Shown piece after piece: positions 6,343 to 35,692 of a stretch of DNA of 64,000 bases. The notes beneath the pieces are model-generated. The model was not told the DNA's origin and ran no database searches. It was given only the letters and a program-made list of their open reading frames with translations. The DNA comes from Candidatus Bipolaricaulota bacterium (GTDB lineage: Bacteria > Bipolaricaulota > Bipolaricaulia > UBA7950 > UBA9294), in the NCBI GenBank assembly GCA_018817505.1, contig JAHITR010000028.1, positions 13,736-77,735 of the forward strand. The letters are read 5' to 3'. The number at the start of each line of letters is the position of its first letter. The first letter of the stretch is position 1. The position numbers were made by a program, and so were the translations under genes.

Positions 6343-7791
6343 CTATTCGCCATCCAGCGGAACCTTCAACACCGGATTCTTGGCTGCCTGGGTTTGATCC
6401 AGGCGGCGGACTGAAGCACGCACTGGAGCATCATGCAGCAGTTGTGGATTCTCTTTCGCTTCTCGCGCGACGATCTCCATGATCTCAGCAAATCGATCGA
6501 GAGTTGCTTTGCTTTCAGTTTCCGTGGGCTCAATCATGATCGCTTCCTTCACTGTAAGCGGGAAGTAGATCGTCGGTGGGTGCACGCCGTAATCAATCAG
6601 GCGTTTAGCGATATCCAGCGTCGAGATCCCTTCTGCCAGCCCCTTCCCTGAGAGGACAAACTCATGTTTGCACAGTCCATCATAGGGCAAGGCATACGTC
6701 TTCTTGAGCCGCTGCTGAAGGTAGTTGGCGTTCAAAACTGCATTCTCGCTAACCTCGCGCAACCCGACATCCCCCAGTTGGAGGATATAGGCGAAGGCAC
6801 GCACGGCCACGAGGAAATTGCCGTAGAACGAATGCACGCTGCCAATTGAGTGTGGGCAATTCCAGTCCAGTTTGTACTGTTCGTTCTCAAGACGTACTCG
6901 AGGAACAGGCAGGTAGTCCACCAGCGCGTCAGAAACGGCAATCGGACCAGATCCCGGCCCGCCGCCGCCGTGTGGCGTCGACATCGTCTTGTGTAAGTTG
7001 AAATGGAAGACGTCTGCACCCATATCTCCGGGACGTGTCTTCCCCATGTAGGAATTGAGATTCGCCCCATCAAAGTAGCACAGACCGCCGGCGGCATGGA
7101 CCTTTTCTGTGACCTGCAAGATATCGGATTCAAAGATGCCCAATGTATTGGGGACCGTGAGCATAATTCCGGCAACCGTATCATCGAGGGCTTCATCCAG
7201 AGCAGCAAGATCAATCCTGCCTGTCTCGTCCGATGCCACTTCGGTCACCGAGAATCCCGCCAAAGCCGCGGATGCCGGATTCGTCCCGTGAGCTGTATCA
7301 GGCAGAAGGATTCGCTTGCGTTCGTGCTCTCCGCGAACCTGGAAATATTTCTTGAACAGGAACATGCCAGCCAACTCGCCGTGCGCTCCAGCGACCGGCT
7401 GAAGCGAGACATCGGCCATTCCAGCAATGCCTCGCAGGAATCCTGTGAGCTCAAACATCAGCTGAAGTGCGCCCTGTGATCGACTGACGTCACTGCGGGG
7501 ATGGAGTCCAGAAAATCCAGGCAACACAGCCATCGCTTCGTTGAGCTTCGGGTTGTACTTCATCGTACAGCTTCCCAGCGGATAGAAGCCATCATCCACG
7601 CCAAAATTGAGCTTAGATAATTTGGTGTAGTGCCTAGCCACCTGCGGTTCCGACAGATCGGGTAGGCGAAGGGGCTGCGTACGAACGTGCGCGGCGTCGA
7701 TGAGCCGTTCCACTCCCTGAGCAGGAACGTCCAGCTCGGGGAAGAGTCCTCCGACCTTTTCACTACATCGACAATCAAAGATAGTGCTCAT
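6343..7791 (-). CDS. gcvPB: glycine dehydrogenase (decarboxylating) subunit 2
   Basis: 482 aa. PLP-lysine context FHFNLHKTMSTPHGGGGPG typical of GcvPB; 4-nt overlap with gcvPA. Confidence 0.93.
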   Translation of the reverse strand: MSTIFDCRCSEKVGGLFPELDVPAQGVERLIDAAHVRTQPLRLPDLSEPQVARHYTKLSKLNFGVDDGFYPLGSCTMKYNPKLNEAMAVLPGFSGLHPRSDVSRSQGALQLMFELTGFLRGIAGMADVSLQPVAGAHGELAGMFLFKKYFQVRGEHERKRILLPDTAHGTNPASAALAGFSVTEVASDETGRIDLAALDEALDDTVAGIMLTVPNTLGIFESDILQVTEKVHAAGGLCYFDGANLNSYMGKTRPGDMGADVFHFNLHKTMSTPHGGGGPGSGPIAVSDALVDYLPVPRVRLENEQYKLDWNCPHSIGSVHSFYGNFLVAVRAFAYILQLGDVGLREVSENAVLNANYLQQRLKKTYALPYDGLCKHEFVLSGKGLAEGISTLDIAKRLIDYGVHPPTIYFPLTVKEAIMIEPTETESKATLDRFAEIMEIVAREAKENPQLLHDAPVRASVRRLDQTQAAKNPVLKVPLDGE

Positions 7792-9110
7792 CGACTCCCT
7801 CCCAGCACTCGAGTCAACCGATCGAGCTCGTTCTTCGTTCGCTTTTCTGTCACAGCGAACCGAAGCACACGGTCGAGACCAAATGATTGAAGAGCCTGCG
7901 GCGCTTCAACAGCGAAGCCTGCCTGCACCAATGCATCGTGAATCTCGGTTGCGTCGCCAGGCACATTCACAATGAATTCATTGAAGAAATCTCCCGCAAA
8001 CGCCAATTCATATCCATCAATCGCCGTGATTCGATCCGCCAAATAATGCGCCTTCTCCAAATTCAGCTTGGCCACTTGCCTCAATCCAGCAGATCCTGCA
8101 CTGGCCAAATAGATCGTGGTCGCCAACGCACAGAGCGCCGAATTGGTGCAGATATTGGACGTGGCCCGCTGGCGGCGAATATGCTGCTCACGCGTCTGAG
8201 CGGCCATTGCATAGCCCGTCTTGCCATCCACATCGACGGTTCGTCCTGCGATGCGTCCGGGCATCTGCCGCAGATGTTCTTCACGCGCCGCAAACAGTCC
8301 CAGTAGCGGACCTCCATAACCCATGGCCAATCCAAGGGACTGCCCTTCGGCAACGACAATGTCGGCTTTGTAGGCACCCGGAGGCTGAAGCAATCCTAGC
8401 GACAAGGGATTGCAGGACACAATGAGCAATGCATCGCCGATCCGCTCCTTCAGCCCGGCCAACGGCTCAATCACACCGAATGCATTGGGCGTTTGCACGA
8501 CCACTGCCGAAAGCTGCTCTGGAAGTGACTGCCAATCAGCCGTCCCGTCGGGGAGATAGTTCATTTCGTGAATTTGGATGTCTGTTGCCCAGCAGTACGT
8601 ATCCAACGTGCGGCGCAGGTGAGAGAAAAGCGAGCGGGGAACCGCGACTGCTCCTCTCTTGCGAATGCGCTCTGCCATCAACACGGCTTCTGCCATCGCC
8701 GTCGCGCCGTCATACATCGACGCATTGGCGATATCCATGCCCGTCAGCTCGCAGACGTAGGTTTGAAACTCAAACATCGCTGTGAGCGTTCCTTGACTGA
8801 TCTCTGGCTGATAGGGCGTATAGGCAGTAACGAATTCGGAACGAGACAGCAAATTGCCAACCACGCTGGGCACGTAATGATCGTAGATTCCCCCACCCAG
8901 CAAGCAGACGGCATCTGTTGGCTTGTTGCGATCCGCCATGTCGCTCACGATGGAGGCGACTTCCATCTCGCTACGCGGCGGCAGCCCCAGGGGCCGGAAA
9001 CAACTTCGAACCGATTCAGGAATATCCGCAAACAATGCTTCAATCGAAGAAACGCCGATCGACGCAAGCATCTCGTCTCGATCGGCAGACGTATTGGGGA
9101 TGTAGCGCAT
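7788..9110 (-). CDS. gcvPA: glycine dehydrogenase (decarboxylating) subunit 1
   Basis: 440 aa. MRYIPNTSADRDEMLASIGVSSIEALFADIP N-terminus typical of GcvPA. Confidence 0.93.
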   Translation of the reverse strand: MRYIPNTSADRDEMLASIGVSSIEALFADIPESVRSCFRPLGLPPRSEMEVASIVSDMADRNKPTDAVCLLGGGIYDHYVPSVVGNLLSRSEFVTAYTPYQPEISQGTLTAMFEFQTYVCELTGMDIANASMYDGATAMAEAVLMAERIRKRGAVAVPRSLFSHLRRTLDTYCWATDIQIHEMNYLPDGTADWQSLPEQLSAVVVQTPNAFGVIEPLAGLKERIGDALLIVSCNPLSLGLLQPPGAYKADIVVAEGQSLGLAMGYGGPLLGLFAAREEHLRQMPGRIAGRTVDVDGKTGYAMAAQTREQHIRRQRATSNICTNSALCALATTIYLASAGSAGLRQVAKLNLEKAHYLADRITAIDGYELAFAGDFFNEFIVNVPGDATEIHDALVQAGFAVEAPQALQSFGLDRVLRFAVTEKRTKNELDRLTRVLGGSR

Positions 9111-9115
9111 CGTGA

Positions 9116-9499
9116 CTAGGCTCCTGATACGAACGATTCGTATGCAGCCGCGTCCATCGTATCATCGAGACCGGCAAGATCGACGACCTCAAGATCCACA
9201 ATCCATCCACCTACGTGCGGTGCCGAATTGATCGTCTCGGGAGCAGATTCGAGTGCATCATTGATTCCCACAACTTTCCCAGAAGCGGGTGAGAAGACAT
9301 CGCCAACAGCCTTCACAGATTCGACAGTAGCGATATTGTCTCCCTTGTTGACGGATGTACCGATCGCAGGCAATTCCACGAACACGATGTCACCCAATTC
9401 GGCTTGTGCGTGATCTGTGATTCCAATGCGCGCTCGATTTCCCTTCAACTGAACCCACTCATGATCCTTGGTGTAACGATAGTCGGTTGGATAGGCCAT
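9116..9499 (-). CDS. gcvH: glycine cleavage system H protein
   Basis: The true start is the ATG at 9497-9499 (MAYPTDYRYTKDHEWV), preceded by AAAGGGGAAG. The tool ORF extends further 5' into dnaB. Lipoyl-lysine region present (ATVESVKAV). Confidence 0.9.
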   Translation of the reverse strand: MAYPTDYRYTKDHEWVQLKGNRARIGITDHAQAELGDIVFVELPAIGTSVNKGDNIATVESVKAVGDVFSPASGKVVGINDALESAPETINSAPHVGGWIVDLEVVDLAGLDDTMDAAAYESFVSGA

Positions 9500-9533
9500 T
9501 GCTTCCCCTTTCAATCCGTTAAAAAAGCCGCCC

Positions 9534-9562
9534 ATTATAGGCGCACACGCTACGTTTGGCCA
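9534..9562 (-). promoter_or_regulatory. candidate sigma70-like promoter for gcvH-gcvPA-gcvPB (TGGCCA-17-TATAAT on the minus strand)
   Basis: The minus strand reads tggccaaacgtagcgtgtgcgccTATAATgggcggcttttttaacggattgaaaggggaagcaATG. The TATAAT hexamer lies about 35 nt upstream of the gcvH start. Confidence 0.35.
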
Positions 9563-9587
9563 CGCTTCCATCAAGAGGCGCGGCTTC

Positions 9588-11063
9588 TCATTCCCCGCTG
9601 ACCGGGTAATAGCTTGCATAGGCCTTGTGAAACATGATGTCGATGTTCCCGACTGGCCCGTTTCTTTGCTTGGCAATAATCAATTCAGTCTGTGCCGACG
9701 CATCGCTGGGTGCGCCTGCTCCACCTTCGTCCTGCTGACGATGGTAATCCTCGCGATAAATGAACATGACGATGTCCGCGTCCTGCTCAATGGCTCCCGA
9801 TTCACGCAGATCTGCCAAGCGCGGCCGTTTCTCTGTCCGGCCTTCCACCCCACGGTTTAACTGTGAAGCCGCAATAACACAGATATTCAACTCGCGTGCC
9901 AATTTCTTGAGAGAACGTGAGATGTAGGCAACTTCCTGCTCGCGACTATCCGTGCGAACCCCGCCTTCCACCAGCTGTAGATAGTCCAGCATGAGTACGT
10001 CCAACCCGTGCTGGGCAGCCATGCGGCGTGCGCGAGCACGGATTTCGAGGATGGAAACGCCGGGAGTATCGTCTACGATGAATTTTGCCTTTTGCAGCTT
10101 GCTGGCCGCAGATGCCAGGTCACGCCACTTTTCTCCGGGAACGAATCCACCACGCAGATGATGAAGATTGACCTTGCCTTCGCCGCACAGCAGACGCTCC
10201 AGCAAGTGCTCTTTCTTCATTTCAAGAGAGAACATACCAATCGTGGCGTTGTCGCGTATGCTCATATGCCTTGCCATCGCCAGCAGAAGACTCGTCTTCC
10301 CCGTCCCCGGCCGCCCGGCGATGATCACCAAGTCAGATCGCTGCATGCCGGCAGTCATTCCATCCAGCTCGGGGAATCCCGTCGCATATCCGGTGATCGT
10401 ATGACGGCCGGGATCTCGATGCAGTTTCTCCAGCGTGTCGATATGCTCGTAAAGAAAATCGCTAATGAGGTAATACGAACTGCCTGTGTCGCGACTGGAA
10501 ACATCGAAGATGAGCTGCTCCGCCTTGTCCAAAATTTCTGCGGTCTCGCTGGTTTCATCGAATCCCAGCTCGGAGATGCGCCCGCCAGACTCAATGAGCG
10601 AACGCAACGTCGCCTTTCTCCTGACGATATCAGCGTAGTATTCGAGGCTTGCCGTGGTTGTGGTGCGATCGAGCAATTCGTTGAGATACATGCGCCCGCC
10701 CGCGCGCTCCATGTCGTCATTCTCTTCCAATCGATTGGCGAGAATAACGATGTCTGCGGGTTCGCCTCGATCAAACAACTCTCGGATTGTGCGAAAAATA
10801 ACACGGTGACGGCGTTCATAGAAGTGTTCAGGAACCAGCCTCTCCACGAGAATGGGGAGCGTACTATTCGGTTCCAGAATGGCAGAGCCAAGCACGACTT
10901 GTTCCGCTTCTATATTTTTCGGAAGCTCTCGCACCTCCGTGCGATCGACTCGTGTTGCATCCACGTGCTTCACCGCCTCAAATGTGGCATCATTATCACT
11001 CGTTGCACGGGCGACGAACAAGTGAAACCGAAGCAATTGTGAATCCGGTGTTCCCCAATGCAC
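9588..11063 (-). CDS. dnaB: replicative DNA helicase
   Basis: N-terminal PKNIEAEQVVLGSAIL motif and a RecA-like C-terminal domain with Walker A GRPGTGKTS. The exact start is uncertain (possibly an internal GTG). Confidence 0.9.
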   Translation of the reverse strand: MHWGTPDSQLLRFHLFVARATSDNDATFEAVKHVDATRVDRTEVRELPKNIEAEQVVLGSAILEPNSTLPILVERLVPEHFYERRHRVIFRTIRELFDRGEPADIVILANRLEENDDMERAGGRMYLNELLDRTTTTASLEYYADIVRRKATLRSLIESGGRISELGFDETSETAEILDKAEQLIFDVSSRDTGSSYYLISDFLYEHIDTLEKLHRDPGRHTITGYATGFPELDGMTAGMQRSDLVIIAGRPGTGKTSLLLAMARHMSIRDNATIGMFSLEMKKEHLLERLLCGEGKVNLHHLRGGFVPGEKWRDLASAASKLQKAKFIVDDTPGVSILEIRARARRMAAQHGLDVLMLDYLQLVEGGVRTDSREQEVAYISRSLKKLARELNICVIAASQLNRGVEGRTEKRPRLADLRESGAIEQDADIVMFIYREDYHRQQDEGGAGAPSDASAQTELIIAKQRNGPVGNIDIMFHKAYASYYPVSGE

Positions 11064-25426: not shown

Positions 25427-25456
25427 AGAGAAGGGCTTCGGCCCTTCTCTTTTTCT
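25427..25456. terminator. rho-independent terminator hairpin between convergent genes
   Basis: agagaagggc-ttcg-gcccttctct, a perfect 10-bp stem with a 4-nt loop followed by TTTTCT, sitting between the gene ending at 25398 (+) and the one ending at 25472 (-). Confidence 0.65.
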
Positions 25457-25471: not shown

Positions 25472-27742
25472 TTAGGCCGATCGCAGCAATTCCGCGACGG
25501 TGCACGGTTCGAGGGGGTATTTGGTCGCCTGATGGCCCACAGCATGGCTTACAGCACTGGCCACAGCCGCATGAGCAGCCATAAGTGGCACTTCCCCCAA
25601 CCCTTTGGCTCCGAACGGGCCAGCCGAAAACTCGGCTTCAATAAAATCGACGCCCATATCGAGCACCACATCGCGGATCGTGGGTAGCCGATAGGTTGTC
25701 AGCCCGTTCACCATCAGGAACCCGTCCTTCTGGGGAATGTCCTCCATGAGCGCAAATCCTATGCCTTGCGCGACGCCTCCCTGTACCTGGCCCGTGGCCA
25801 ACGTACGATTGAGAATTCGGCCTGAATCGTGGACAGCCACAAAGTCAATGACGTCCGTTTCTCCAGTGACCGTGTCGACCTCAACTTCGGCAATATGGCA
25901 GGCGTACGCATAGACGGGATAGGCGTCTCCCAGGCCCGTCTGCGGATCCCAAGACACCGGTTCTGTCTTGGCCCAGCCTTCGACGGCGGGATCAAGGTTA
26001 TTCAGCCAGAACAAGTTGGCGATTTCGTCCCAACGCTGCCGAATTTCAGAGCGATCCATTCCGTTGCCAAGCGCAACCTCCTCAACACGTTCGCGGAGTT
26101 TCCTGGCTGCATCGAGCACGGCCAGTCCTGACATCATCGTTCCACGCGAAGCAACCGTCGGCCCTGAATCCGGAACGCGTGACGTATCCACAGGCGCCAG
26201 CTGAATTCGCTCGATAGAAACACCGAGCTCTTCTGCAGCAATTTGAAGCAGCGATGTGGTGAGCCCTTGTCCCATTTCCACAGTTCCCACGGCAACGGCA
26301 ACGGAACCGTCAGCTTCTAGCTTCATCGTCGCGCCAGCCTTGTCTAGGAAGGGAGCTTTTCCTCCTAATCCAACACCATACAGAACGCAGGAAATGCCAA
26401 GACCCCGCTTGATGTCGCGGTGTTGCTCATTGAAGGCGGCGATGGCTTCCAGTCGCTGATTCCATTCGACCATCTCTGTCGCACGGGCGAGCGAATCGGC
26501 CATTCCTACACTGGAATCAAGCAGTTGCTCGGTCGACGACCGATCGCCTTCGACAAGCACATTACGTCGTCGTATGTTTGCCCGATCCAAATTCAGCGCC
26601 TCAGCCAGCCGATCCAACTGCGCTTCGTGCGGGAAGATCACTTGCGGGCTTCCGAATCCTCGAAATGCACCATTGGGAACGGTGTTTGTCGCCACTGACT
26701 TAGCATTCACGCGAACATTGGGGATGCGATAGGGGCCTGCTGCCGTGCACAAACTTCGCCACAATACGGCAGAGCTGAGCGTTTGATAGGCACCCGCATT
26801 GAGGATGACATCCACATCAATGGCTGTGATCGTTCCGTCAAACATTGCTCCGGTTCGGTAATGCACACGGGACGGGTGGCGTTTGCTGGTCGTCAATACG
26901 TCTTCTCCGCGATCCAGGACCAGCTTCACAGGACGCCGAGTCTTCCAGGCCATGAGCGCGGCCAAGCTACAGATCTGCGACGGAACGTCTTCCTTGCCAC
27001 CGAATGCTCCTCCTGTCGTGGCCTGGATGACGCGGATCTTGGACATCGGAAGACCGAGCACCACAGAAACGGCCCGCTGCACATAGAATGGACACTGCAT
27101 CGATGCGTAGATGGCCATGCCACCGCCCTCTTCGGGAACAGCAATGGCCCCTTGGGTTTCAATATACGCGTGCTCTTGATAGCCCGTTTCGTAGTCACCC
27201 TCGATGATCACATCTGCTTGGGCAAAACCCGCATCTGCATCGCCCTTGTGCAAGACCATCTCATTAAATAGATTACCGCCCCCCTCAGCCGCAGCTTCAA
27301 GCGAGACGATGACGGGGGAATCAGAGCGAAGTGCCTCCACAGGATCGCTCACCACAGGCAATTCCTCATACGTGATCTTCATGCCCTCGGCTGCTTGCTT
27401 GGCCACTTTGCGGCTCGTTGCCGCGATAAGGGCCACGGGTTCGCCCACGTAGCGAACCACATCGCAAGCAAGCGCTGGCTGGTCATCGTAGATGACGTGA
27501 ACGACATTCTTGCCAGGCACGTCCTCATGGGTCACCAGACAACTCACATCCGGGTGAGAGAATGCTGACGCGAGATCCACGTGCATGACCTTGGCATGCG
27601 GAAGTGGACTGCGGACAACCCATCCATGGAGCATTCCGGGAAACGCGAGATCATCGACGTACTTCGCGTCACCGCGTACTTTGTCTACTGCGTCAGGACG
27701 CGATAGCCCAGCTCCAATCAGGGTTGTCCGCATGTGCGTCAT
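25472..27742 (-). CDS. xanthine dehydrogenase / aldehyde oxidase family molybdopterin-binding large subunit (stand-alone, no FeS or FAD domain)
   Basis: 756 aa. An N-terminal a/b-hammerhead region leads into the Mo-binding domains. Motifs: TTGGAFGGKED and PNGAFRGFGSPQ. The C-terminal motif reads ATGQVQGGVAQGIG where XDH has GQVEGAFVQGLG. Stop/start abutment with the carbamoyltransferase gene ending at 27745. Confidence 0.88.
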   Translation of the reverse strand: MTHMRTTLIGAGLSRPDAVDKVRGDAKYVDDLAFPGMLHGWVVRSPLPHAKVMHVDLASAFSHPDVSCLVTHEDVPGKNVVHVIYDDQPALACDVVRYVGEPVALIAATSRKVAKQAAEGMKITYEELPVVSDPVEALRSDSPVIVSLEAAAEGGGNLFNEMVLHKGDADAGFAQADVIIEGDYETGYQEHAYIETQGAIAVPEEGGGMAIYASMQCPFYVQRAVSVVLGLPMSKIRVIQATTGGAFGGKEDVPSQICSLAALMAWKTRRPVKLVLDRGEDVLTTSKRHPSRVHYRTGAMFDGTITAIDVDVILNAGAYQTLSSAVLWRSLCTAAGPYRIPNVRVNAKSVATNTVPNGAFRGFGSPQVIFPHEAQLDRLAEALNLDRANIRRRNVLVEGDRSSTEQLLDSSVGMADSLARATEMVEWNQRLEAIAAFNEQHRDIKRGLGISCVLYGVGLGGKAPFLDKAGATMKLEADGSVAVAVGTVEMGQGLTTSLLQIAAEELGVSIERIQLAPVDTSRVPDSGPTVASRGTMMSGLAVLDAARKLRERVEEVALGNGMDRSEIRQRWDEIANLFWLNNLDPAVEGWAKTEPVSWDPQTGLGDAYPVYAYACHIAEVEVDTVTGETDVIDFVAVHDSGRILNRTLATGQVQGGVAQGIGFALMEDIPQKDGFLMVNGLTTYRLPTIRDVVLDMGVDFIEAEFSAGPFGAKGLGEVPLMAAHAAVASAVSHAVGHQATKYPLEPCTVAELLRSA

Positions 27743-27744
27743 GC

Positions 27745-28767
27745 TTACAGACGCCCTCCCATGGTGAGGGTCATGATCGCCTTCTGAGTATGCAGTCGGT
27801 TCTCTGCTTGGTCATAAATCCACGACAGATCGTTGTCGCAGACATCAGGCATGGCCTCATGTCCTCGATCTACTGGCATGCACTGGAGTAGATGCCCGGG
27901 ACTGGTAAGCGCCTGCTTTTCAGCGGTGTAGCACCAGTTCTTGTACTTGAGGGCAATCTCGTGCTCCTTCTCTTTGCCAATATCGTATCGATCCTTGGTG
28001 AACCAATTGCGCGGGAAGACGACCGTGGCACCAGCAAGAGCTTTGTCCAAATCGTTCTCCACCGTGAATTGGCCCCCAGTCTGCTTGGCCAAATCCCGGC
28101 ACTGCTGCATGACGTTGGGATCCATGTCATACTCCGGCGGATGGGCAACAACAACGTCCATGCCGTACATCGACGAAATCAGTGCCGTTCCCTGAACAGA
28201 GCAGAGACCGCGGATCCACGGCGTGTAGGCCCACATAATGACAATCTTCCTTCCCTTGACCTTGCCTTCCAGTTTTTCGTGCATGGTGTAGATGTCTGTC
28301 AGCGACTGGCAGGGATGGTTGATGTCTGATGCCATGTTGATGACGGGAACGCCGGCATGTTCGCCGAACATTCTCATCACTTGGTCGCCAAAGCCGTAAT
28401 GGTCGATGGCGTCATCGAGCAGACGAATACCAATACCATCGCAGAACCGAGCCATCGCCTTGGCGGTATCCTTGACGGTTTCGCCGGCTCCTGGCTTGTC
28501 TTCGAGAGAGATGCGCATGGTCGACGGGTTGAGGAACTGGGCATGTCCGCCCAATTGTGTCATACCCGTTTCAAAAGACATCCGCGTGCGCGTCGATCCG
28601 GCAAAGAACAGCATGGCGAACGTCTTGTCTTCGAGAGTGTGATGCGGTTTCCTGCTGTAGTAGGCACCCTTCAGCTGATCCGTGACCTTCATCGCGATAT
28701 CGTACTCTTCGCGCGTCCAGTCAATCTCGCTGATGAGATTGCGACCTGCTAGATCAAACCAGCTCAT
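27745..28767 (-). CDS. YgeW-like knotted carbamoyltransferase, paralog B (divergent)
   Basis: ATG at 28765-28767 (MSWFDL) after an AGGAGG RBS. Carbamoyl-phosphate binding STRTR (FAGSTRTRMSF), HPCQ (HPCQSLTD), an IMWAYTPW block, and LLQCMPVDRG in place of the HCLPA motif. Confidence 0.8.
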   Translation of the reverse strand: MSWFDLAGRNLISEIDWTREEYDIAMKVTDQLKGAYYSRKPHHTLEDKTFAMLFFAGSTRTRMSFETGMTQLGGHAQFLNPSTMRISLEDKPGAGETVKDTAKAMARFCDGIGIRLLDDAIDHYGFGDQVMRMFGEHAGVPVINMASDINHPCQSLTDIYTMHEKLEGKVKGRKIVIMWAYTPWIRGLCSVQGTALISSMYGMDVVVAHPPEYDMDPNVMQQCRDLAKQTGGQFTVENDLDKALAGATVVFPRNWFTKDRYDIGKEKEHEIALKYKNWCYTAEKQALTSPGHLLQCMPVDRGHEAMPDVCDNDLSWIYDQAENRLHTQKAIMTLTMGGRL

Positions 28768-28845
28768 GCTTCCTCCTTGGAGGCGGCGCTCATCGCGGAG
28801 TTCGTAGCGCTTGACGCTACGAACCCCGCACAATGAATCGCAGCT

Positions 28846-29880
28846 TTACCCCATAATCAGGGCCATCATGCCCTTCTGCGCATGCAGACGGTTGGCGGCC
28901 TCTTCGATAATGACCGAGCTAGGGCCGTCAATGACTTCGTCAGTCACTTCCATATCCCGATCTGCTGGCAAACAATGCATGTAGATGGCGTCATTGGTGA
29001 GCTCCATCTTGTCCTGGGTGCAGATCCAATCCTTGTTCGCCTCAAAGATTTCCTTCGCAGCAGCCTCATCCCATGCGCGACCATCCGTTGCCTGCACAGT
29101 CCAAGCCTTGGGGTAGACAACGACGGCGTCCTTGAATGAGTCATCCATGTCGTGGGAGATCTGGAATGCACCACCATTCTTCTTGGCCAGATCCTTGGTT
29201 GCCTGCAGAATGCGGGGATCAAGATCCAATCCCTTGGGATGAGCCAACGTGACGTCCATGCCCATCATGGCCGCTGAGATGATGGCCGACTGAGGAACAG
29301 CCAGCGGTTTGGCTACTGACCCGGAATAGGCCCAGGACATCACGAATTTCTTGCCCTGCAGGTTGTTGCTGAGCTTCTCCTGCATGGTCATGACGTCTGC
29401 CAATGCCTGGCATGGATGGTAGATGTCGTCTTCCATGTTAATCACGGGGATCTTGGACCATTTGGCAAATTCACGCACAATGCGGTCGCCTTTTCCATAT
29501 TCCCAACCCGTCGGCTTTCCGTAGATGCGGATGGCAATCGCGTCACCCATTTCAGCCAATACTCGTGCAACGTCAGAGATGCGCTCTGTGGAGTAGGCCA
29601 CTTCATCGCCTTTGAGAGCTGGCGTGTAAACGGCACCCGGCTGAAGGAAGTGAGCGTGTCCGCCCATCTGCGTCATGCCAGCCTCGAACGAGTTACGTGT
29701 TCGAAGCGAGGAATTGTAGAACATCATGTGTAGCGTTTGCCCATCGAGCACTTTGTGCGGTTCGCGACGGATGAACTTCCTCTTCAGGTCGTGAGCTGTA
29801 TCAAGCATCGCCTCGATTTCGTCGCGGGAGAAGTCAAGCCACGTAATGAAATCGCGGCCACGAAGTGTTGTACTAGACAT
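28846..29880 (-). CDS. YgeW-like knotted carbamoyltransferase, paralog A
   Basis: AGGAGG RBS before MSSTTLRG. Motifs SLRTR, HPCQALAD, KKFVMSWAYSGSVAKPLAVPQ, MDVTLAHPKG and KDWICTQDKMELTNDAIYMHCLPAD closely follow the E. coli YgeW pattern as I remember it. Confidence 0.82.
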   Translation of the reverse strand: MSSTTLRGRDFITWLDFSRDEIEAMLDTAHDLKRKFIRREPHKVLDGQTLHMMFYNSSLRTRNSFEAGMTQMGGHAHFLQPGAVYTPALKGDEVAYSTERISDVARVLAEMGDAIAIRIYGKPTGWEYGKGDRIVREFAKWSKIPVINMEDDIYHPCQALADVMTMQEKLSNNLQGKKFVMSWAYSGSVAKPLAVPQSAIISAAMMGMDVTLAHPKGLDLDPRILQATKDLAKKNGGAFQISHDMDDSFKDAVVVYPKAWTVQATDGRAWDEAAAKEIFEANKDWICTQDKMELTNDAIYMHCLPADRDMEVTDEVIDGPSSVIIEEAANRLHAQKGMMALIMG

Positions 29881-29897: not shown

Positions 29898-30854
29898 CTA
29901 ATTCTTGGTAATCGTTGTTCCGGCGTTGCCTTCCAGGGCAGCAACTGCCTGATTGAGAGAGGTGATGATTGCCTTCTCCCCGCCCGCTTCGACAAATCGA
30001 ACGGCCGCTCGAACCTTGGGCTCCATGGAGCCCTTGGCAAAGTGGCCCTCTTCCGCATACTTCTTGGCTTCGGCAACAGTCATCTTCGAGAGGGATTTCT
30101 CGTCCGAAGTCTTGTAATTCAACCGTACACTGTCCACATCCGTGAGAACCATGAAGATCGACGCACCCACGTCGACAGCCAAACGTTCTCCTGCCAGATC
30201 CTTGTCAATGACTGCATCGACGCCAACAAGCTTCCCATCCTCGCGGATGACGGGGATGCCTCCGCCGCCGGAGGCAATGACGATCGCCTTGGCTTCCACG
30301 AGATGTCGGATCGAATCCTTCTCATGAATGGAGATCGGATCTGGCGAAGGCACAACTCGGCGCCAGCCACGGCCCGCGTCCTCACGAACGTTGTAGCCCT
30401 TATCCGATTCCAGGGCCTTGGCTTCGGCTTCAGAATAGAAGGGGCCTACGGGCTTGGTTGGATTGGAGAATGCCGGATCCTGCTTGTCTACGACAACCTG
30501 GGTCACGATGGTAGCGACAGGTATGTCGCCTCGACCCTGCTCTGCAAGCAGATTGCCCAGGTTCTGTTGAATCATGAGGCCGATGAACCCCTGCGATTCG
30601 GCCCCCAAAGCAAACAAAGGCATCGGTGCAGCGACCTCTTTGCCCGCTTCGTTTTGAAGCAGCAGGTTGCCCACCTGAGGTCCGTTGCCATGGGTGACCA
30701 CAACACGATACTTGCCGGACTCCACCATGTGTGCCAACTGCACGCACGTAACATGCACATTGGCCATCTGTTCTTCGTATGTGCCCTTCTGTCCCGGTTG
30801 AAGAATCGCATTGCCACCGAGAGCGACTACTACTGTCTTCTTTCCACCATCCAT
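29898..30854 (-). CDS. arcC: carbamate kinase
   Basis: TVVVALGGNA N-terminus and GGGGIPV motif of the amino-acid-kinase family; 318 aa. Confidence 0.9.
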   Translation of the reverse strand: MDGGKKTVVVALGGNAILQPGQKGTYEEQMANVHVTCVQLAHMVESGKYRVVVTHGNGPQVGNLLLQNEAGKEVAAPMPLFALGAESQGFIGLMIQQNLGNLLAEQGRGDIPVATIVTQVVVDKQDPAFSNPTKPVGPFYSEAEAKALESDKGYNVREDAGRGWRRVVPSPDPISIHEKDSIRHLVEAKAIVIASGGGGIPVIREDGKLVGVDAVIDKDLAGERLAVDVGASIFMVLTDVDSVRLNYKTSDEKSLSKMTVAEAKKYAEEGHFAKGSMEPKVRAAVRFVEAGGEKAIITSLNQAVAALEGNAGTTITKN

Positions 30855-30990: not shown

Positions 30991-31698
30991 TCATGCCTCC
31001 CAGATCTCTCGCATGCGATCCCAATGCTCGACCGTCTTGGCAAAGGCCGTATCGGCATCGCGTACCACAATGGCACCAAGTATCTCTTGATGAAGATCCA
31101 CCACATGCTGAATGTCATCCACATTCTTCAGGTAGTAATGCCTGGTGAATTCCCGATACACAAGCTGATCCATGGTGTCCAACAAGGGCGTTAGCGCAGC
31201 AGTAATCAGCGCGTTTCCTACGGCATCGGCCAATTCAGTATGGAATCGTTTGTCCGCATCGAAATAGGCATCAAAGTCGTCTTTGGCTGCATTTTCGCGC
31301 ATATCCTCGATGGACTTGCGCAACCGTGCTACCACTGCGCCCGATGCCTTGGACGCAACCAGAGCCGCAATGGGCGGTTCCAGTACGCCCCGTGCTTCCA
31401 TCACTTCGAGACATCCCATTTCGGATTCAATCAGATGGACTGCGGCAGTTTCATCGGAGGAACTGGGCTTACGCATGACGTAGTTGCCGCTTCCCGGACG
31501 GGATTCAATAATCGACATCGCTTGCAGCGCAGACAATGCTTCCCGGATGGATGGCCGACTCACACCCATCAATTCAGCCAGCTCGAATTCTGAGGGCAGT
31601 TTGCTGCTCACTGGATAATCGCCACGTTGAATCGCATCCACGATCTGCTCAGCAGCAATGGCGCTTACCTTGCGAGGTCGAACCTTCTTGAAAGACAT
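30991..31698 (-). CDS. GntR-family transcriptional regulator (FadR/FCD subfamily)
   Basis: N-terminal wHTH (LPSEFELAELMGVSRPSIREAL) and a C-terminal all-helical FCD-like domain. AGGAGG RBS. Confidence 0.85.
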   Translation of the reverse strand: MSFKKVRPRKVSAIAAEQIVDAIQRGDYPVSSKLPSEFELAELMGVSRPSIREALSALQAMSIIESRPGSGNYVMRKPSSSDETAAVHLIESEMGCLEVMEARGVLEPPIAALVASKASGAVVARLRKSIEDMRENAAKDDFDAYFDADKRFHTELADAVGNALITAALTPLLDTMDQLVYREFTRHYYLKNVDDIQHVVDLHQEILGAIVVRDADTAFAKTVEHWDRMREIWEA

Positions 31699-31775: not shown

Positions 31776-33134
31776 CTAAGGGAGGGCACGGAACAGGAAC
31801 TTCCCGCGACCTTCTTCAGCAAGCAATTCTCCATCCTGAACGATGATCTCGCCTCGAGAGATTGTCGATACGGCCTTGCCTGTCATCTCCCATCCTTCGT
31901 ACGGAGAGAAATCGGTTCTCATGTGCAGGAATGTCGCTTCAATCTCCCACTCCAGAGCCGGATCAAAGATCACCAAGTCCGCGTCCATGCCAATCTCAAT
32001 CGATCCTTTGTGACCATCTAGTCCGTAGATCTGAGCCGGCCCTTCGCTGAGAAGGCGAGGAATGTCCGTCACAGACAGCAATCCCTTCCCCACTCCCTCG
32101 GAGTAGAGAATCGGAAGAAGCGTCTCCACTCCAGGAAGACCATACGGAAGATCCACGAACGACCCTCGCCAGGTCTTTTGCTCGCGCGTAAACGGACAGT
32201 GGTCCGTGGCGACAAAGTCGATCACCCGATTCCTCAATCCGTTCCACAGCATCGTTTGATCCCCCAACGTGCGGAGCGCTGGGCTGGCAGAGAAGAGGTG
32301 TCCATCCATGCGCTCATAGGAATCGGCGCCCAGAACAAGATACTGCGGGCACGTCTCAGCAGTCATCGCTGCTCCTGACTTGCGCGCCTCTTGAACAGCC
32401 ATGATCCCCTTGGCAGAAGAGACGTGCACAATGTGAGTACGACAGCCTGTCTCAGCGGCCGCACGCCCGACCTGTGAGATCGCTGTCGATTCACAGAGTG
32501 CTGGACGCGCCCGCGCCAGGATGGACATGTCCGTCATCTGTTCGGGAGAAAGCGACTCCATGATCGAACGGATCAGATCTTCATCCTCACAATGAACGAG
32601 TGCCACGCAATCCAAGTCCGCCAAATGTTCGAACGCCCGCCGCATAATGGCAGGCGTCGTGCGCCGCCCTGACGACTCATAGGCCGTATAAAACTTGAAG
32701 CTCGTCACTCCGCGTCGCCGAGCTTCTGCAAACTCGCCCGATTCTTCGGGCTTCCACCCAACCACTTCTGCATGCAAGCCCACATCGATAATCGCGGGCT
32801 GGATATTCTCCATCCGTCGATCGATGTCCAGGGGAATCGAAGAACGCAAGGACCCCACCGTAAAGTCAAGAATGCTTGTCACTCCGCCAAACGCGGCAGC
32901 CACAGTCCCCGTGTAGAAATCGTCTGAGGATCGAGTCCCTGCGACGGGGAGATCCATGTGCGTGTGAGCATCGATGACTCCAGGGAACACCAACATTCCG
33001 TCTGCGTCAAGCACACGATGGCCAGACAATGCTGTTCCGAGAGCGGAAATGGTCTCTCCGTCAATCCCAATGTCCAGCTTTTGCGCGGACAGCGGCGTAA
33101 CCACTGTGCCGTTTCGAATGACAAGATCATGCAT
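31776..33134 (-). CDS. cyclic amidohydrolase of the hydantoinase / dihydropyrimidinase / allantoinase family
   Basis: PGVIDAHTHMDLP metal-binding His pair; GTVAAAFGGVTSILDF; a carbamylated-lysine context GVTSFKFYTAY. The start is probably the ATG at 33132-33134 (MHDLVIRNGTVV); the tool start at 33164 is a TTG. Confidence 0.85.
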   Translation of the reverse strand: MHDLVIRNGTVVTPLSAQKLDIGIDGETISALGTALSGHRVLDADGMLVFPGVIDAHTHMDLPVAGTRSSDDFYTGTVAAAFGGVTSILDFTVGSLRSSIPLDIDRRMENIQPAIIDVGLHAEVVGWKPEESGEFAEARRRGVTSFKFYTAYESSGRRTTPAIMRRAFEHLADLDCVALVHCEDEDLIRSIMESLSPEQMTDMSILARARPALCESTAISQVGRAAAETGCRTHIVHVSSAKGIMAVQEARKSGAAMTAETCPQYLVLGADSYERMDGHLFSASPALRTLGDQTMLWNGLRNRVIDFVATDHCPFTREQKTWRGSFVDLPYGLPGVETLLPILYSEGVGKGLLSVTDIPRLLSEGPAQIYGLDGHKGSIEIGMDADLVIFDPALEWEIEATFLHMRTDFSPYEGWEMTGKAVSTISRGEIIVQDGELLAEEGRGKFLFRALP

Positions 33135-33234: not shown

Positions 33235-34704
33235 ATGATTGACCTGACGATACACGAAGGCAAGCTTCAGAATACCGTGCGCCGTGCGCGCGAGCGCGGT
33301 ATTGTTATTCCTACGTTCGAGCAGATGAAGAACCCGTCGCTCATTCCCGCAACCGTCAAGGCTGGATTGAAAGCCCACGGCTTGTGGGACCTTCATCCAC
33401 TCAACCTGTATCGCATCACCTGGAAGAACGAGCCCGTTCTTCAAGGCGGCGGCTTTGGCGGCGTCAATTATATCGAATTCCCATCTGCGCTCACGGGCGT
33501 CGACGCTCGCATCATTGCCCTCATCGGCAAGTGGTTCCCAACCGGAGCCCACAAAGTGGGAGCCACATTCGGTTGCCTCGTCCCTCGCTTGGTGACCGGT
33601 CAGTTCGACCCAACGTTCCACAAGGCCGTGTGGCCATCCACAGGAAATTTCTGCCGCGGCGGCGCCTACAACTCGGCACTGCTCGGCTGTGACTCCATTG
33701 CCATCTTGCCCGAGGAGATGTCCAAGGAACGATTTGCATGGTTGTCCAAGGTAGCTGGAGAGGTCATCGCTACACCGGGTTGCGAATCGAATGTTTGGGA
33801 GATTTTTCAGAAGTGCAAAGAGCTGCAAGCGACGCGGGACAACGTCATGATCTTCGACCAATTTGAGGAATTCGGAAACCATCTCTGGCACTACGACGTC
33901 ACTGGACATGCCATGCAAGACGTGCTGAACATCGAGCTCAAGGGCGGCCGATATGCTGGTGTCGTCTTGACCTCAGGATCAGGCGGCACCATGGGCTGTG
34001 GCGATTATCTGAAAGAACAGTATCCCGGCTCCAAGCTCATTGCCTCAGAGGCTCTTCAGTGCCCGACGATGCTTGAGAATGGGTTCGGCGGCCATCGCAT
34101 CGAAGGCATCGGCGACAAGCACATCCCATGGATTCACAACGTTCGGAATACAGACTTCGCGGTCGCCATTGATGACGAGGATCCCATGCACTTGATTCGG
34201 TTGTTCAATGAACCTGAGGGCAAGAAACATCTGCAATCGCTGGGGCTGTCGCCTGCATACGTGGAAGCGCTGGAACAGCTAGGCATCTCTGGCGTGGCCA
34301 ACGTGCTGGCTTCCATCAAATTCGCCAAGTACAACGAGTTGACGAGTTCCGACGTTGTACTCACGGTATTGACCGATTCCATGGAAATGTATGGTACGCG
34401 TCTTCAAGAACTGAATGAGTCCCTGGGGCCCTATACCACGAATCAGGCTGCCATCGATCACAGTCGACACATGCTGGGTCAGAAGACTGACTCCATGCAG
34501 GAATTAGGCTATCGTGATCGAAAGCGCATCCACAACCTGAAGTACTTCACATGGATCGAGCAGATGGGCCGGAGTGTCGCTGAACTCGATCGGCAATGGT
34601 ACGACTACGACGCCTACTGGGGGGGCATTCACAGCATGGTGCCCGCTATTGACAAGTTGATCGTGGAATTCAACGAAGCCGTCGGCCTGGAAGCCAAGCG
34701 CTAA
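33235..34704 (+). CDS. fold-type II (tryptophan-synthase-beta / cysteine-synthase-like) PLP-dependent enzyme, subfamily unknown
   Basis: Candidate PLP-lysine in FPTGAHKVGA. Downstream WPSTGNFCRGGA and LPEEMSKERFAWLSKVAGEV align by eye to the cysteine-synthase core. Long N-terminal extension (about 110 aa); 489 aa total. Confidence 0.7.
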   Translation: MIDLTIHEGKLQNTVRRARERGIVIPTFEQMKNPSLIPATVKAGLKAHGLWDLHPLNLYRITWKNEPVLQGGGFGGVNYIEFPSALTGVDARIIALIGKWFPTGAHKVGATFGCLVPRLVTGQFDPTFHKAVWPSTGNFCRGGAYNSALLGCDSIAILPEEMSKERFAWLSKVAGEVIATPGCESNVWEIFQKCKELQATRDNVMIFDQFEEFGNHLWHYDVTGHAMQDVLNIELKGGRYAGVVLTSGSGGTMGCGDYLKEQYPGSKLIASEALQCPTMLENGFGGHRIEGIGDKHIPWIHNVRNTDFAVAIDDEDPMHLIRLFNEPEGKKHLQSLGLSPAYVEALEQLGISGVANVLASIKFAKYNELTSSDVVLTVLTDSMEMYGTRLQELNESLGPYTTNQAAIDHSRHMLGQKTDSMQELGYRDRKRIHNLKYFTWIEQMGRSVAELDRQWYDYDAYWGGIHSMVPAIDKLIVEFNEAVGLEAKR

Positions 34705-34705
34705 A

Positions 34706-35692
34706 ATGGAACCCGTCTTTGGATCTCCACTCGCGCCGGTCGTTGAACTCATCCGTGCGCAAATGGAGAAACAGAGAAAGAAACAGCCTATCTTGCTCGT
34801 TGGCGGCATCGGATCGGGCAAGACGGCAGCCGGCCTCCGACTTTTGTCCCTGCTTCGCAGCTACGGGATTCAAGTCGGAGGCATTCTTGCTCCCCGCATT
34901 CTCAAGGGAGAGGAGACGATCGGATATTCGATCATCGACCTTGCCACCAATGCGACCCATCCCTTTGCTGGCTTGGAGCCATCGGATGTGCAAATCGGCA
35001 AGTACTACCTGTCCCAAGCCGGATTGGATCTGGCTGAACGAACGATCCGCAACGCCCTCAATGAACGGCCAGTCGTGTTCATCGACGAGGTGGGCCGATT
35101 AGAGCTTGAGGGCGGCGGACACGCACAGGCTATTCGCCAGCTGCTGAAATCCAACAGCGTGCCTGTGCTTCTGGTTCGTGATACGCTTGTTGAACAGGCC
35201 ATTCGCACGTTCGACATTACGAGTCCTTTCATCTTCCACGCTTCTGAAATGCAAGACACCGAAGAAATGGCACCCGGTGGCGCGCAGACGTTTTGGCAGA
35301 TCGTTGATTCCATCCCCTATCCCTTGCTTGTCACCATTAGCTCTCTCGATGGATTTCCTCAGTCACGCCCAATGCACTTGATCGATCACGATGCTCGGAC
35401 GGTATGGTTCGCCACATCCAGAGCATCGAACAAGATCAAGCAGATCGAGGGCAATTCACACGTGACCGTTTTGTTTGTCGATTCGGCCCGCTACAACTAC
35501 GCCGCGTTCCATGGCCATGCCCGTATCGTCGATGACGCCGATCGTGAACGAACGCTTTGGCGCAACGAGTGGGAGGAGGATTGGCCGGAAGGCCCTTCGG
35601 ATCCTGATTATGTTCTCATCCGCATCGACGGCATCCGAGGCCACTTTCTGCGTGGAGCTACGGGTGAGTCTGGTGAAGTCGAATTGGGCTAG
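34706..35692 (+). CDS. fusion protein: N-terminal P-loop NTPase (THEP1/DUF2478-like) and C-terminal pyridoxamine-5'-phosphate-oxidase-like FMN-binding split-barrel
   Basis: Walker A LLVGGIGSGKTAAG and Walker B VVFIDEVGRLE in the first 180 aa. The C-terminus (LLVTISSLDGFPQSRPMHLIDHDARTVWFATSRASNKIKQIEGNSHVTVLF) resembles the PNPOx / general-stress-protein-26 fold. Start is 2 nt after the PLP gene stop. Confidence 0.6.
   Translation: MEPVFGSPLAPVVELIRAQMEKQRKKQPILLVGGIGSGKTAAGLRLLSLLRSYGIQVGGILAPRILKGEETIGYSIIDLATNATHPFAGLEPSDVQIGKYYLSQAGLDLAERTIRNALNERPVVFIDEVGRLELEGGGHAQAIRQLLKSNSVPVLLVRDTLVEQAIRTFDITSPFIFHASEMQDTEEMAPGGAQTFWQIVDSIPYPLLVTISSLDGFPQSRPMHLIDHDARTVWFATSRASNKIKQIEGNSHVTVLFVDSARYNYAAFHGHARIVDDADRERTLWRNEWEEDWPEGPSDPDYVLIRIDGIRGHFLRGATGESGEVELG

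Follow-up and report, generated by a model that had tools for sequence, protein, structure and literature searches.

In a 64-kb stretch of a Candidatus Bipolaricaulota genome (contig JAHITR010000028.1, positions 13,736 to 77,735; the whole stretch is called the window below), two divergent carbamoyltransferase genes, A and B, lie in tandem beside a carbamate kinase gene. This A-B module is best filed as a catabolic carbamoyltransferase and carbamate kinase system of anaerobic purine or ureide degradation. Both proteins keep intact catalytic residues, the pair is conserved in a fixed gene order within the phylum, it is linked to purine-type genes, and parallel clusters with two transferases exist in other phyla. 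Our preferred reading, to which we give a probability of about 40%, is that A and B phosphorolyse in turn both ureido groups of a purine-derived di-ureide, which would yield two ATP through the kinase. The analysis covered the window and more of the same contig (ENA ERZ27247128, k141_800848, 92 kb), ~78 kb in all; L003, L173 and similar names are labels of the related loci used for gene-neighbourhood comparison.

The natural point of comparison is the anaerobic breakdown of urate described in 2025 by two groups, in which urate is reduced to 2,8-dioxopurine, dearomatised and ring-opened to 2,3-diureidopropionate via SsnA and HyuA. YgeW then phosphorolyses one ureido group, with ATP formed via YqeA, and YgeY hydrolyses the other (bioRxiv 10.1101/2025.04.24.650524; PMC12507026); YgeX turns diaminopropionate into pyruvate. 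A first-pass annotation of this DNA had described the physiological substrate of every YgeW-family enzyme as unsettled. That statement is outdated, since 2,3-diureidopropionate, a di-ureide, was settled as the substrate in 2025 (PMC12507026; bioRxiv 10.1101/2025.04.24.650524; PMC12990295), and the di-ureide substrate that the same annotation had proposed fits well with this result. Our literature searches returned nothing on Bipolaricaulota or Acetothermia in connection with carbamate kinase, purines or xanthine dehydrogenase (XDH), and no description of a two-transferase variant of diureidopropionate breakdown.

Two divergent carbamoyltransferases with intact motifs

Both transcarbamylase domains, PF02729 and PF00185, are matched by A (E-values 3e-41 and 7e-34) and by B (1.6e-38 and 4.9e-26), which excludes a chance resemblance. 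The two proteins are 39% identical over their full length. The open reading frame of B spans 27745-28833, but translation really begins at the ATG at 28767, which an AAGGAGG Shine-Dalgarno sequence precedes by 5 nt; the N-terminus is conserved across 18 orthologs, and the public gene calls agree.

The motifs SLRTR, HPCQ, MSWAYSG and YMHCLPADRD are found in A, with R118 as the beta4 Arg, and STRTR, HPCQ, IMWAYTP and LLQCMPVDRG in B, with R115 in the same role. The motifs listed by the first-pass annotation are thus present, except that the (M/I)xWAYxP block said to be shared is broken in A, where the final Pro is absent. The SLRTR of A, which had been singled out as notable, is an ordinary variant: published motif tables give S[LT]RT for ornithine carbamoyltransferase (OTCase) and the YgeW enzyme (YTCase), and S[LM]RT for the N-acetylornithine and N-succinylornithine enzymes (AOTCase and SOTCase) (PMC4016543). 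At the HxLP position B has QCMP and its orthologs HCMP or HVMP, the M-P pair being invariant.

All carbamoyl-phosphate-binding residues are present in A and B, and they are invariant across 19 B orthologs. Since every one of these residues is kept and the orthologs are strongly conserved, both proteins are probably active enzymes, and the earlier description of two divergent, apparently functional carbamoyltransferases in tandem holds. The idea that B is an inactive pseudo-enzyme was rejected because of its invariant carbamoyl-phosphate ligands; that B is a recent duplicate of A was rejected as well, B branching outside A, the YgeW-like enzymes and the AOTCases. The second-substrate pockets of the two proteins differ, with E150, S188, K191 and K258 in A at the places of A146, W184, G187 and R253 in B, which has R186 in addition.

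Relationship to known transcarbamylase classes

The alignment set A and B against E. coli YgeW, ArgI and PyrB and against AOTCase and Pyrococcus OTCase sequences taken from PDB alignments. The specificity residues of PMC4581275 were mapped onto both proteins, and the AOTCase numbering (Xanthomonas) was verified on 12 published residues. As judged from the sequence, A and B carry the signatures of the knotted transcarbamylases, the class of AOTCase, SOTCase and YTCase, namely a Pro-rich loop and an extended 120s loop, which read WAYSGSVAKPLAVPQ and IYGKPTGWEYGKGD in A and WAYTPWIRGLCSVQ and LLDDAIDHYGFGD in B. The loop WAYSGSVAKPLAVPQ of A almost equals the WAYSPSYGKPLSVPQ of YgeW, and A shares with YgeW the pattern S..KPLxVPQ, the YPKxW and HCLPAD motifs and the YgeW positions S200, K203, K270 and E344.

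YgeW itself is set apart by extra N- and C-terminal helices, by two helices that lengthen its 240s loop, and by a short 80s loop containing Gln98 (PMC4581275). In the alignment to E. coli YgeW, both proteins are without the terminal extensions and the 240s insertion, and their 80s loops are long; they are ~50 residues shorter than YgeW and 33% (A) and 32% (B) identical to it. On the YgeW models TIGR03316 and NF005538, whose cut-offs are 500 and 453, A scores 163.1 and 172 and B 114.6 and 116; a short YgeW-like enzyme encoded in the SsnA-YgeY cluster L014 itself scores just 236-257. By these sequence criteria A and B are not YgeW equivalogs.

Neighbour-joining (NJ) trees with 100 bootstraps separate an OTC clade (100%) from a knotted clade that holds A and B (77-79%). 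Inside the knotted clade are an AOTC group (66%) and a group of YgeW with short YgeW-like enzymes (78%); A forms a group with its relative in locus L098 (94%), weakly placed as sister to the YgeW-like group (65%). B belongs to a clade of 100% support that branches outside the A, YgeW-like and AOTC groups, and appears as a small clade of its own, so far seen in Bipolaricaulota only. The designation "YgeW-type knotted" in the first-pass annotation is thus right only in a loose sense: it is supported as to the knotted signatures, the YgeW-like loop of A and the sister placement, and not as to strict YgeW membership, in view of the scores far under the cut-offs, the missing extensions and insertion, and the position of B outside YgeW, A and AOTC.

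The AOTCase model NF003384 (cut-off 288) gives 318.9 for A and 236.1 for B; no NCBIfam equivalog model reaches its cut-off with B. Because A exceeds this cut-off, A and its orthologs (P0121-P0240) carry the public name "N-acetylornithine carbamoyltransferase", which is probably a systematic misannotation throughout the phylum. None of the three AOTCase discriminators is matched: E92, N185 and K302 correspond to T98, K191 and E311 in A and to G95, G187 and E304 in B. Since all three are absent, A is not a real AOTCase. The SOTCase pattern, by the criteria of PMC4581275, fits at one position out of three.

The canonical classes fit no better. Scores on the OTCase model TIGR00658 are 236.6 (A) and 217.1 (B) for a cut-off of 280.85. 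The OTCase residues D231, S235 and M236 are replaced by K258, V262 and Q263 in A and by R253, T257 and K258 in B, and K53, the Lys of FxKxSxRT, by N56 and A56; the DxxxSMG and RxQ motifs are absent from both proteins. On the putrescine carbamoyltransferase (PTCase) model TIGR04384 (cut-off 500) A scores 207.5 and B 190.3; the Gln of the PTCase motif FxQxSxRT is absent (N in A, A in B), and neither protein has the C-terminal extension of ~20 residues. Since A and B lie outside the OTC, ATC and PTC clades and are without DxxxSMG, RxQ and the PTCase features, the comparison did not refute the first-pass annotation by its own test, which was that one of the two would prove to be a canonical ornithine, aspartate (ATCase) or putrescine enzyme.

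By sequence the closest solved relative of A is the Xanthomonas AOTCase (232 bits, compared with 156 for YgeW), and those of B are the Pyrococcus OTCase (177 bits) and then AOTCase (168 bits). AlphaFold2 models reach a pLDDT of 81 for B and 68 for A, residues 54-100 of A being poorly predicted, and in view of this low confidence we draw no pocket-level conclusions from the A model. Foldseek gives AOTCase as the top fold match of A and B; as its TM-score with B is 0.85 and those of unknotted OTCases are 0.80-0.83, this comparison cannot separate knotted from unknotted folds.

Gene organization and conservation in Bipolaricaulota

The minus strand carries, in order, the hydantoinase, the GntR regulator, the carbamate kinase, A, B and the XDH molybdopterin (Mo) subunit (Table 1). 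The gaps are 17 nt between kinase and A, 78 nt between A and B, and 2 nt between B and the XDH gene. From the GntR gene to the XDH gene this strand has no terminator-like site comparable to the hairpin that follows the XDH gene, which probably marks the end of the operon. The kinase is 47% identical to E. coli YqeA and adjoins A in every related locus.

Table 1. Features of the A-B module and of its surroundings (window positions unless a locus is named)
Feature	Position	Strand	Description
Carbamoyltransferase A	28846-29880	-	344 aa, ATG start; PF02729 + PF00185
Carbamoyltransferase B	27745-28767	-	340 aa, begins MSWFDL; PF02729 + PF00185
Carbamate kinase	29898-30854	-	318 aa; TIGR00746 435.5 vs cut-off 358
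GntR/FCD-family transcriptional regulator	30991-31698	-	PF00392 + PF07729; first gene of core module
D-hydantoinase/dihydropyrimidinase-family cyclic amidohydrolase	31776-33134	-	452 aa; upstream of GntR
Xanthine-dehydrogenase-family molybdopterin subunit	25472-27742	-	756 aa; PF01315 + PF02738 + PF20256
PLP-dependent enzyme PLP489	33235-34704	+	489 aa; PF00291 52.7 bits; divergent from cluster
P-loop NTPase_1/PNPOx-like flavin-binding fusion	34706-35692	+	328 aa; PF03266 + PF16242/PF01243
GC-rich hairpin	25427-25450	.	10-bp stem (6 G-C) + T-run; between XDH gene and convergent gene
PLP489, paired genes included where adjoining	33235-35692	+	window
PLP489, paired genes included where adjoining	L173 10001-12480
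PLP489, paired genes included where adjoining	L174 10001-12415
PLP489, paired genes included where adjoining	L013 1186-2697
PLP489, paired genes included where adjoining	L020 4519-5979
PLP489, paired genes included where adjoining	L023 3677-5200

A followed by B beside the kinase is found in all Bipolaricaulota loci that are long enough (the window, L003-L007, L009-L013, L093-L095 and L173). In these loci A is 71-91% and B 55-91% identical to the window proteins; A orthologs across Bipolaricaulota are 71-96% identical. The GntR gene lies upstream of the kinase in L003-L006, L013, L093, L095, L173 and L174. B was never seen without A among the loci examined, which argues for functional dependence. 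We found no B ortholog outside Bipolaricaulota: in a scan of GTDB species representatives, identity to B falls abruptly from 55% to 39%, and a HMMER scan of 1.84 billion representative proteins gave ~4 clusters at least 43% identical to B.

At least seven loci have the XDH subunit after B (L006, L007, L009, L093, L094, L173 and, truncated, L008), and its tight coupling to B, with a start 2 nt past the B stop, is kept in several lineages. The hydantoinase stands beside the module in the window and its close relative L173 alone; L093 carries, besides the XDH subunit, an ABC transporter and an adenine deaminase. The link to purines follows from these three genes: the Mo subunit coupled to B, the adenine deaminase of L093 and the hydantoinase of the window and L173. 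The PLP489, NTPase and PNPOx genes flank the module in L013, L173 and L174.

A few loci show local irregularities. In the closed genome CP070725.1 the A gene is split into pieces ~0.8 Mb apart, residues 1-273 lying beside the kinase (L174 7305-8126) and residues 258-344 before B and the truncated XDH gene (L008 9615-9878); the split reflects either a rearrangement that passes through the gene or a misassembly. A 177-aa open reading frame of unassigned family with repetitive GC-rich flanks sits between A and B in L009 (793-1326) and is perhaps a small mobile insertion. At a distance of a few kb from the module, L173 (15143-21461) and L003 (15908-21032) carry proline racemases, an ornithine cyclodeaminase, a creatinase/prolidase-like M24 peptidase, a glycyl-radical enzyme and sarcosine-oxidase-like flavoproteins, which suggests a neighbourhood devoted to the catabolism of nitrogen compounds. 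In the window, glycine cleavage genes (two P-protein subunits and the H protein, 6343-9676, minus strand) lie ~20 kb from the cluster, with no link established.

Neighbouring enzymes

Enzymes of the D-hydantoinase/dihydropyrimidinase family open five- and six-membered cyclic ureides, so a single amidohydrolase might cover both ring openings of the pathway. The window enzyme scores 368.6 on TIGR02033 (cut-off 393), has D-hydantoinases as its best PDB relatives (290 bits) and is 36% identical to E. coli HyuA.

The best PDB relatives of the Mo subunit are xanthine oxidoreductases (363 bits), and it is about equally far from XdhA (31-32%) and XdhD (28-30%). Li et al. proposed that E606 of E. coli XdhD orients urate; this position falls within an insertion that the window subunit does not have, so that the mapping is uninformative.

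The PLP489 protein is a fold-type II pyridoxal-phosphate (PLP) enzyme with a cysteine-synthase-like core and N- and C-terminal extensions; its matches to PDB cysteine synthases are weak, and it has no NCBIfam equivalog. In Bipolaricaulota it is always paired with NTPase_1 and PNPOx-like domains, fused to one another in the window and L173 and encoded by adjacent separate genes in L174. Homologs 63% and 44% identical occur in the actinobacterial loci L020 and L023. PLP489 may stand in for the diaminopropionate lyase YgeX, which is found in none of the PLP489 loci, and the PNPOx-like domain might be the reductase of the pathway.

Related clusters in other phyla

Enzymes 38-46% identical to A occur in Actinomycetota, Chloroflexota and Sumerlaeota, in loci with SsnA-, HyuA-, XdhD/YgfM-, YgeY- and carbamate kinase-like genes that resemble the E. 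coli uric-acid cluster. The Nocardioides locus L023 has SsnA-like (37%), HyuA-like (40%), YgfM-like and XdhD-like (36%, 512 bits) genes along with the PLP489 homolog, and its second transferase belongs to the ATCase branch. The actinomycetotal locus L020 combines a carbamate kinase, two carbamoyltransferases, an XDH subunit and the PLP489 homolog, and L025 an XDH gene, YgeY, a pseudo-ATCase, an A-like enzyme and a kinase. Altogether a pseudo-ATCase adjoins an A-like enzyme in seven loci (L019, L020, L023, L025, L026, L097 and L099); this two-transferase arrangement is one of Actinomycetota and Chloroflexota. In the sequence available a YgeY-like gene is present in one of these seven, and in both single-transferase loci: L014, fully flanked, which has SsnA, YgeY (45%) and a transferase 41% identical to YgeW, and L017, whose contig begins at the one transferase gene seen, so that a second one is possible.

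The pair of L023 had been noticed by Barba et al. (2013, PMC4016543), who described a pseudo-ATCase of group 2 in Nocardioides sp. JS614 that adjoins xdh, hyuA and a "ygeW homologue". There too, two unlike carbamoyltransferases are adjacent in a purine-type cluster, and the A-like member falls in the YgeW-like clade sister to A; the partner, however, is an ATCase-branch protein ~25% identical to A and B, whereas B belongs to the knotted group.

The closest relative of A outside the phylum is an A-family member of L098 (6309-13387, JGI Ga0209748_1000851), 53% identical and with the same signature loops. Its gene has a PucR-type regulator on one side and a carbamate kinase on the other and is flanked by a class-III aminotransferase gene and a PF04371 (agmatine-deiminase/PAD family) gene, an arrangement suggestive of a deiminase pathway in which a knotted-type transferase takes the place of a canonical PTCase or OTCase. 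A further set of loci (L030, L101, L103, L104 and L106) combines an OTC-like gene (~40% to ArgI), a cyclic amidohydrolase and an ATCase-like gene (~44% to PyrB), with a carbamate kinase and a second ATCase-like gene in L106; these may simply be pyrimidine and arginine genes of the usual kind, or else form another catabolic module with several transferases.

Proposed pathway and alternatives

In the reading that we prefer, A, B and the carbamate kinase would form a substrate-level-phosphorylation module. Each transferase would cleave one ureido (N-carbamoyl) group by phosphorolysis, and from the resulting carbamoyl phosphate the kinase would produce ATP, CO2 and NH3. The substrate would be 2,3-diureidopropionate from anaerobic purine breakdown, or a close analogue supplied by the neighbouring hydantoinase. 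A, with its YgeW-like pocket residues, would take the first ureido group; B would take the second from mono-ureido-aminopropionate, the step that YgeY performs hydrolytically in E. coli, and the yield would be two ATP per purine as compared with one. Purines would enter the pathway through the XDH-type Mo subunit, and the PLP enzyme would deaminate 2,3-diaminopropionate to pyruvate.

This di-ureide scheme is the most economical one: it explains why A and B strictly occur together, their two differing and intact pockets, the kinase and the purine-type genes; it also covers the PLP enzyme as a possible lyase and the independent two-transferase clusters of other phyla. With the YgeW-YqeA-YgeY system in the reductive (2,8-dioxopurine) uric-acid pathway of E. 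coli and Clostridium sporogenes, the window cluster has in common a catabolic carbamoyltransferase beside its kinase, along with a hydantoinase, a Mo enzyme of the XDH family and a PLP enzyme of fold type II; it differs in its two transferases and in the absence of YgeY, YgeX, SsnA and YgfK.

Several observations weigh against this scheme. On the ~78 kb covered of the 92-kb contig we found no SsnA, no YgfK/UacX or other known reductase, and no YgeX; the Mo subunit has no Fe-S ([2Fe-2S]) or FAD domain, and no subunit of that kind is encoded there either. In L003-L005 and L095 neither XDH nor hydantoinase stands with the core module. M20 peptidases, with 24-27% identity to YgeY, are found alongside A and B in L010, L011, L013 and L093, and L025 has YgeY besides two transferases, so that B is not everywhere a simple replacement of the hydrolase. 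The agmatine-deiminase context of L098 indicates that the specificity of the A family is flexible and not tied to purine ureides. Finally, A has AOTCase-like features (long 80s and 120s loops as in Xanthomonas ArgF', and the NME motif, which is NMAS in B), and its grouping with the YgeW-like enzymes has an NJ bootstrap of 65%.

A more far-reaching version of the same scheme, somewhat doubtful in our view, is that the A-B module represents a double-phosphorolysis variant of the reductive purine pathway, B a new carbamoyltransferase specificity and the compact cluster a minimal complete pathway. B would then act catabolically on a ureido-aminopropionate (albizziin or 3-amino-2-ureidopropanoate), as a carbamoyltransferase whose active-site motif is HxMP/QCMP, and the pathway would comprise a Mo hydroxylase, a PNPOx-like reductase, one hydantoinase/dihydropyrimidinase for both ring openings, A, B, the kinase and a PLP enzyme as a new diaminopropionate lyase. 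On the allantoinase model the hydantoinase reaches 285 bits, and a route from allantoin to allantoate and on through two phosphorolyses is chemically possible; it counts as a minor variant of the preferred reading because it would leave the XDH and PLP genes unexplained and would need an O2-dependent source of allantoin.

The strongly unlike second-substrate pockets of A and B would also be expected if the two enzymes worked in parallel on two different mono-ureido substrates with a shared kinase and regulator, for example if one took an N-carbamoyl amino acid derived from purines or hydantoins and the other took N-carbamoyl-beta-alanine, citrulline or carbamoylputrescine. The variation of the neighbours between lineages (XDH, hydantoinase, M20 peptidase, ABC transporter, adenine deaminase) and the agmatine-deiminase-family gene next to the A-family member of L098 point in the same direction. 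Independent pathways would nevertheless be expected to separate, and B never occurs without A, the A-B order being the same at every locus seen. Neither a deiminase nor a dihydropyrimidine dehydrogenase is present in the Bipolaricaulota loci examined, and we regard this explanation as unlikely. The module does resemble the arginine and agmatine deiminase pathways, in which a catabolic OTCase or PTCase and a kinase lead from ureide and phosphate through carbamoyl phosphate to ATP; it differs from them in having neither a deiminase nor ornithine or putrescine recognition motifs, and the ureide is probably made here by ring-opening amidohydrolases instead.

Strict co-occurrence and adjacent genes are compatible, too, with a heteromeric enzyme, made of mixed trimers or as A3-B3, in which A and B would share active sites or B would tune specificity or regulation. 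To our knowledge no heteromer of two carbamoyltransferases is known. One point for the idea is that transcarbamylase active sites are built by two adjacent subunits through the 80s loop; the review that describes this reports no such heteromer (PMC4581275). Another is that the two proteins evolve at unequal rates, A being 71-87% identical between loci where B is 55-82%. B nevertheless retains its full catalytic set and is no pseudo-enzyme, and since other phyla pair an A-like enzyme with an unrelated ATCase-branch protein, two activities fit better than one complex. A heteromer is thus distinctly improbable. Least credible of all, and to be given hardly any weight, is an arginine-related function, with A as an anabolic N-acetylornithine or ornithine carbamoyltransferase and B as a catabolic OTCase working with the kinase. 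It could draw on the NF003384 score of A and on AOTCase, to which A is nearest by sequence, and both proteins by fold, among solved structures. The mismatched AOTCase and SOTCase residues, the missing DxxxSMG motif and FxKxSxRT Lys, and the sub-threshold OTCase scores of both proteins all speak against it. A has HCLPAD where AOTCase has HCLP(L/I/V)R, and AOTCase serves arginine biosynthesis whereas the context here is catabolic: arg genes are absent from the window and all related loci, no arginine deiminase is present in any locus, and the module lies instead among a kinase and purine genes.

Significance

If both ureido groups are indeed phosphorolysed, the A-B module would be a more energy-efficient form of the anaerobic purine pathway described in 2025, and would show how ATP is gained from nitrogen-rich heterocycles in energy-limited fermenters such as Bipolaricaulota. 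The probable misannotation of A and its orthologs as N-acetylornithine carbamoyltransferase deserves to be flagged in any case. Should A and B have separate regiospecificities, they could help to settle the dispute over which ureido group of diureidopropionate goes first. The proposal would finally give functions to two unstudied carbamoyltransferase clades, to a widespread 489-aa PLP family and to the long-unexplained pseudo-ATCase/YgeW-like pairs of Actinomycetota.

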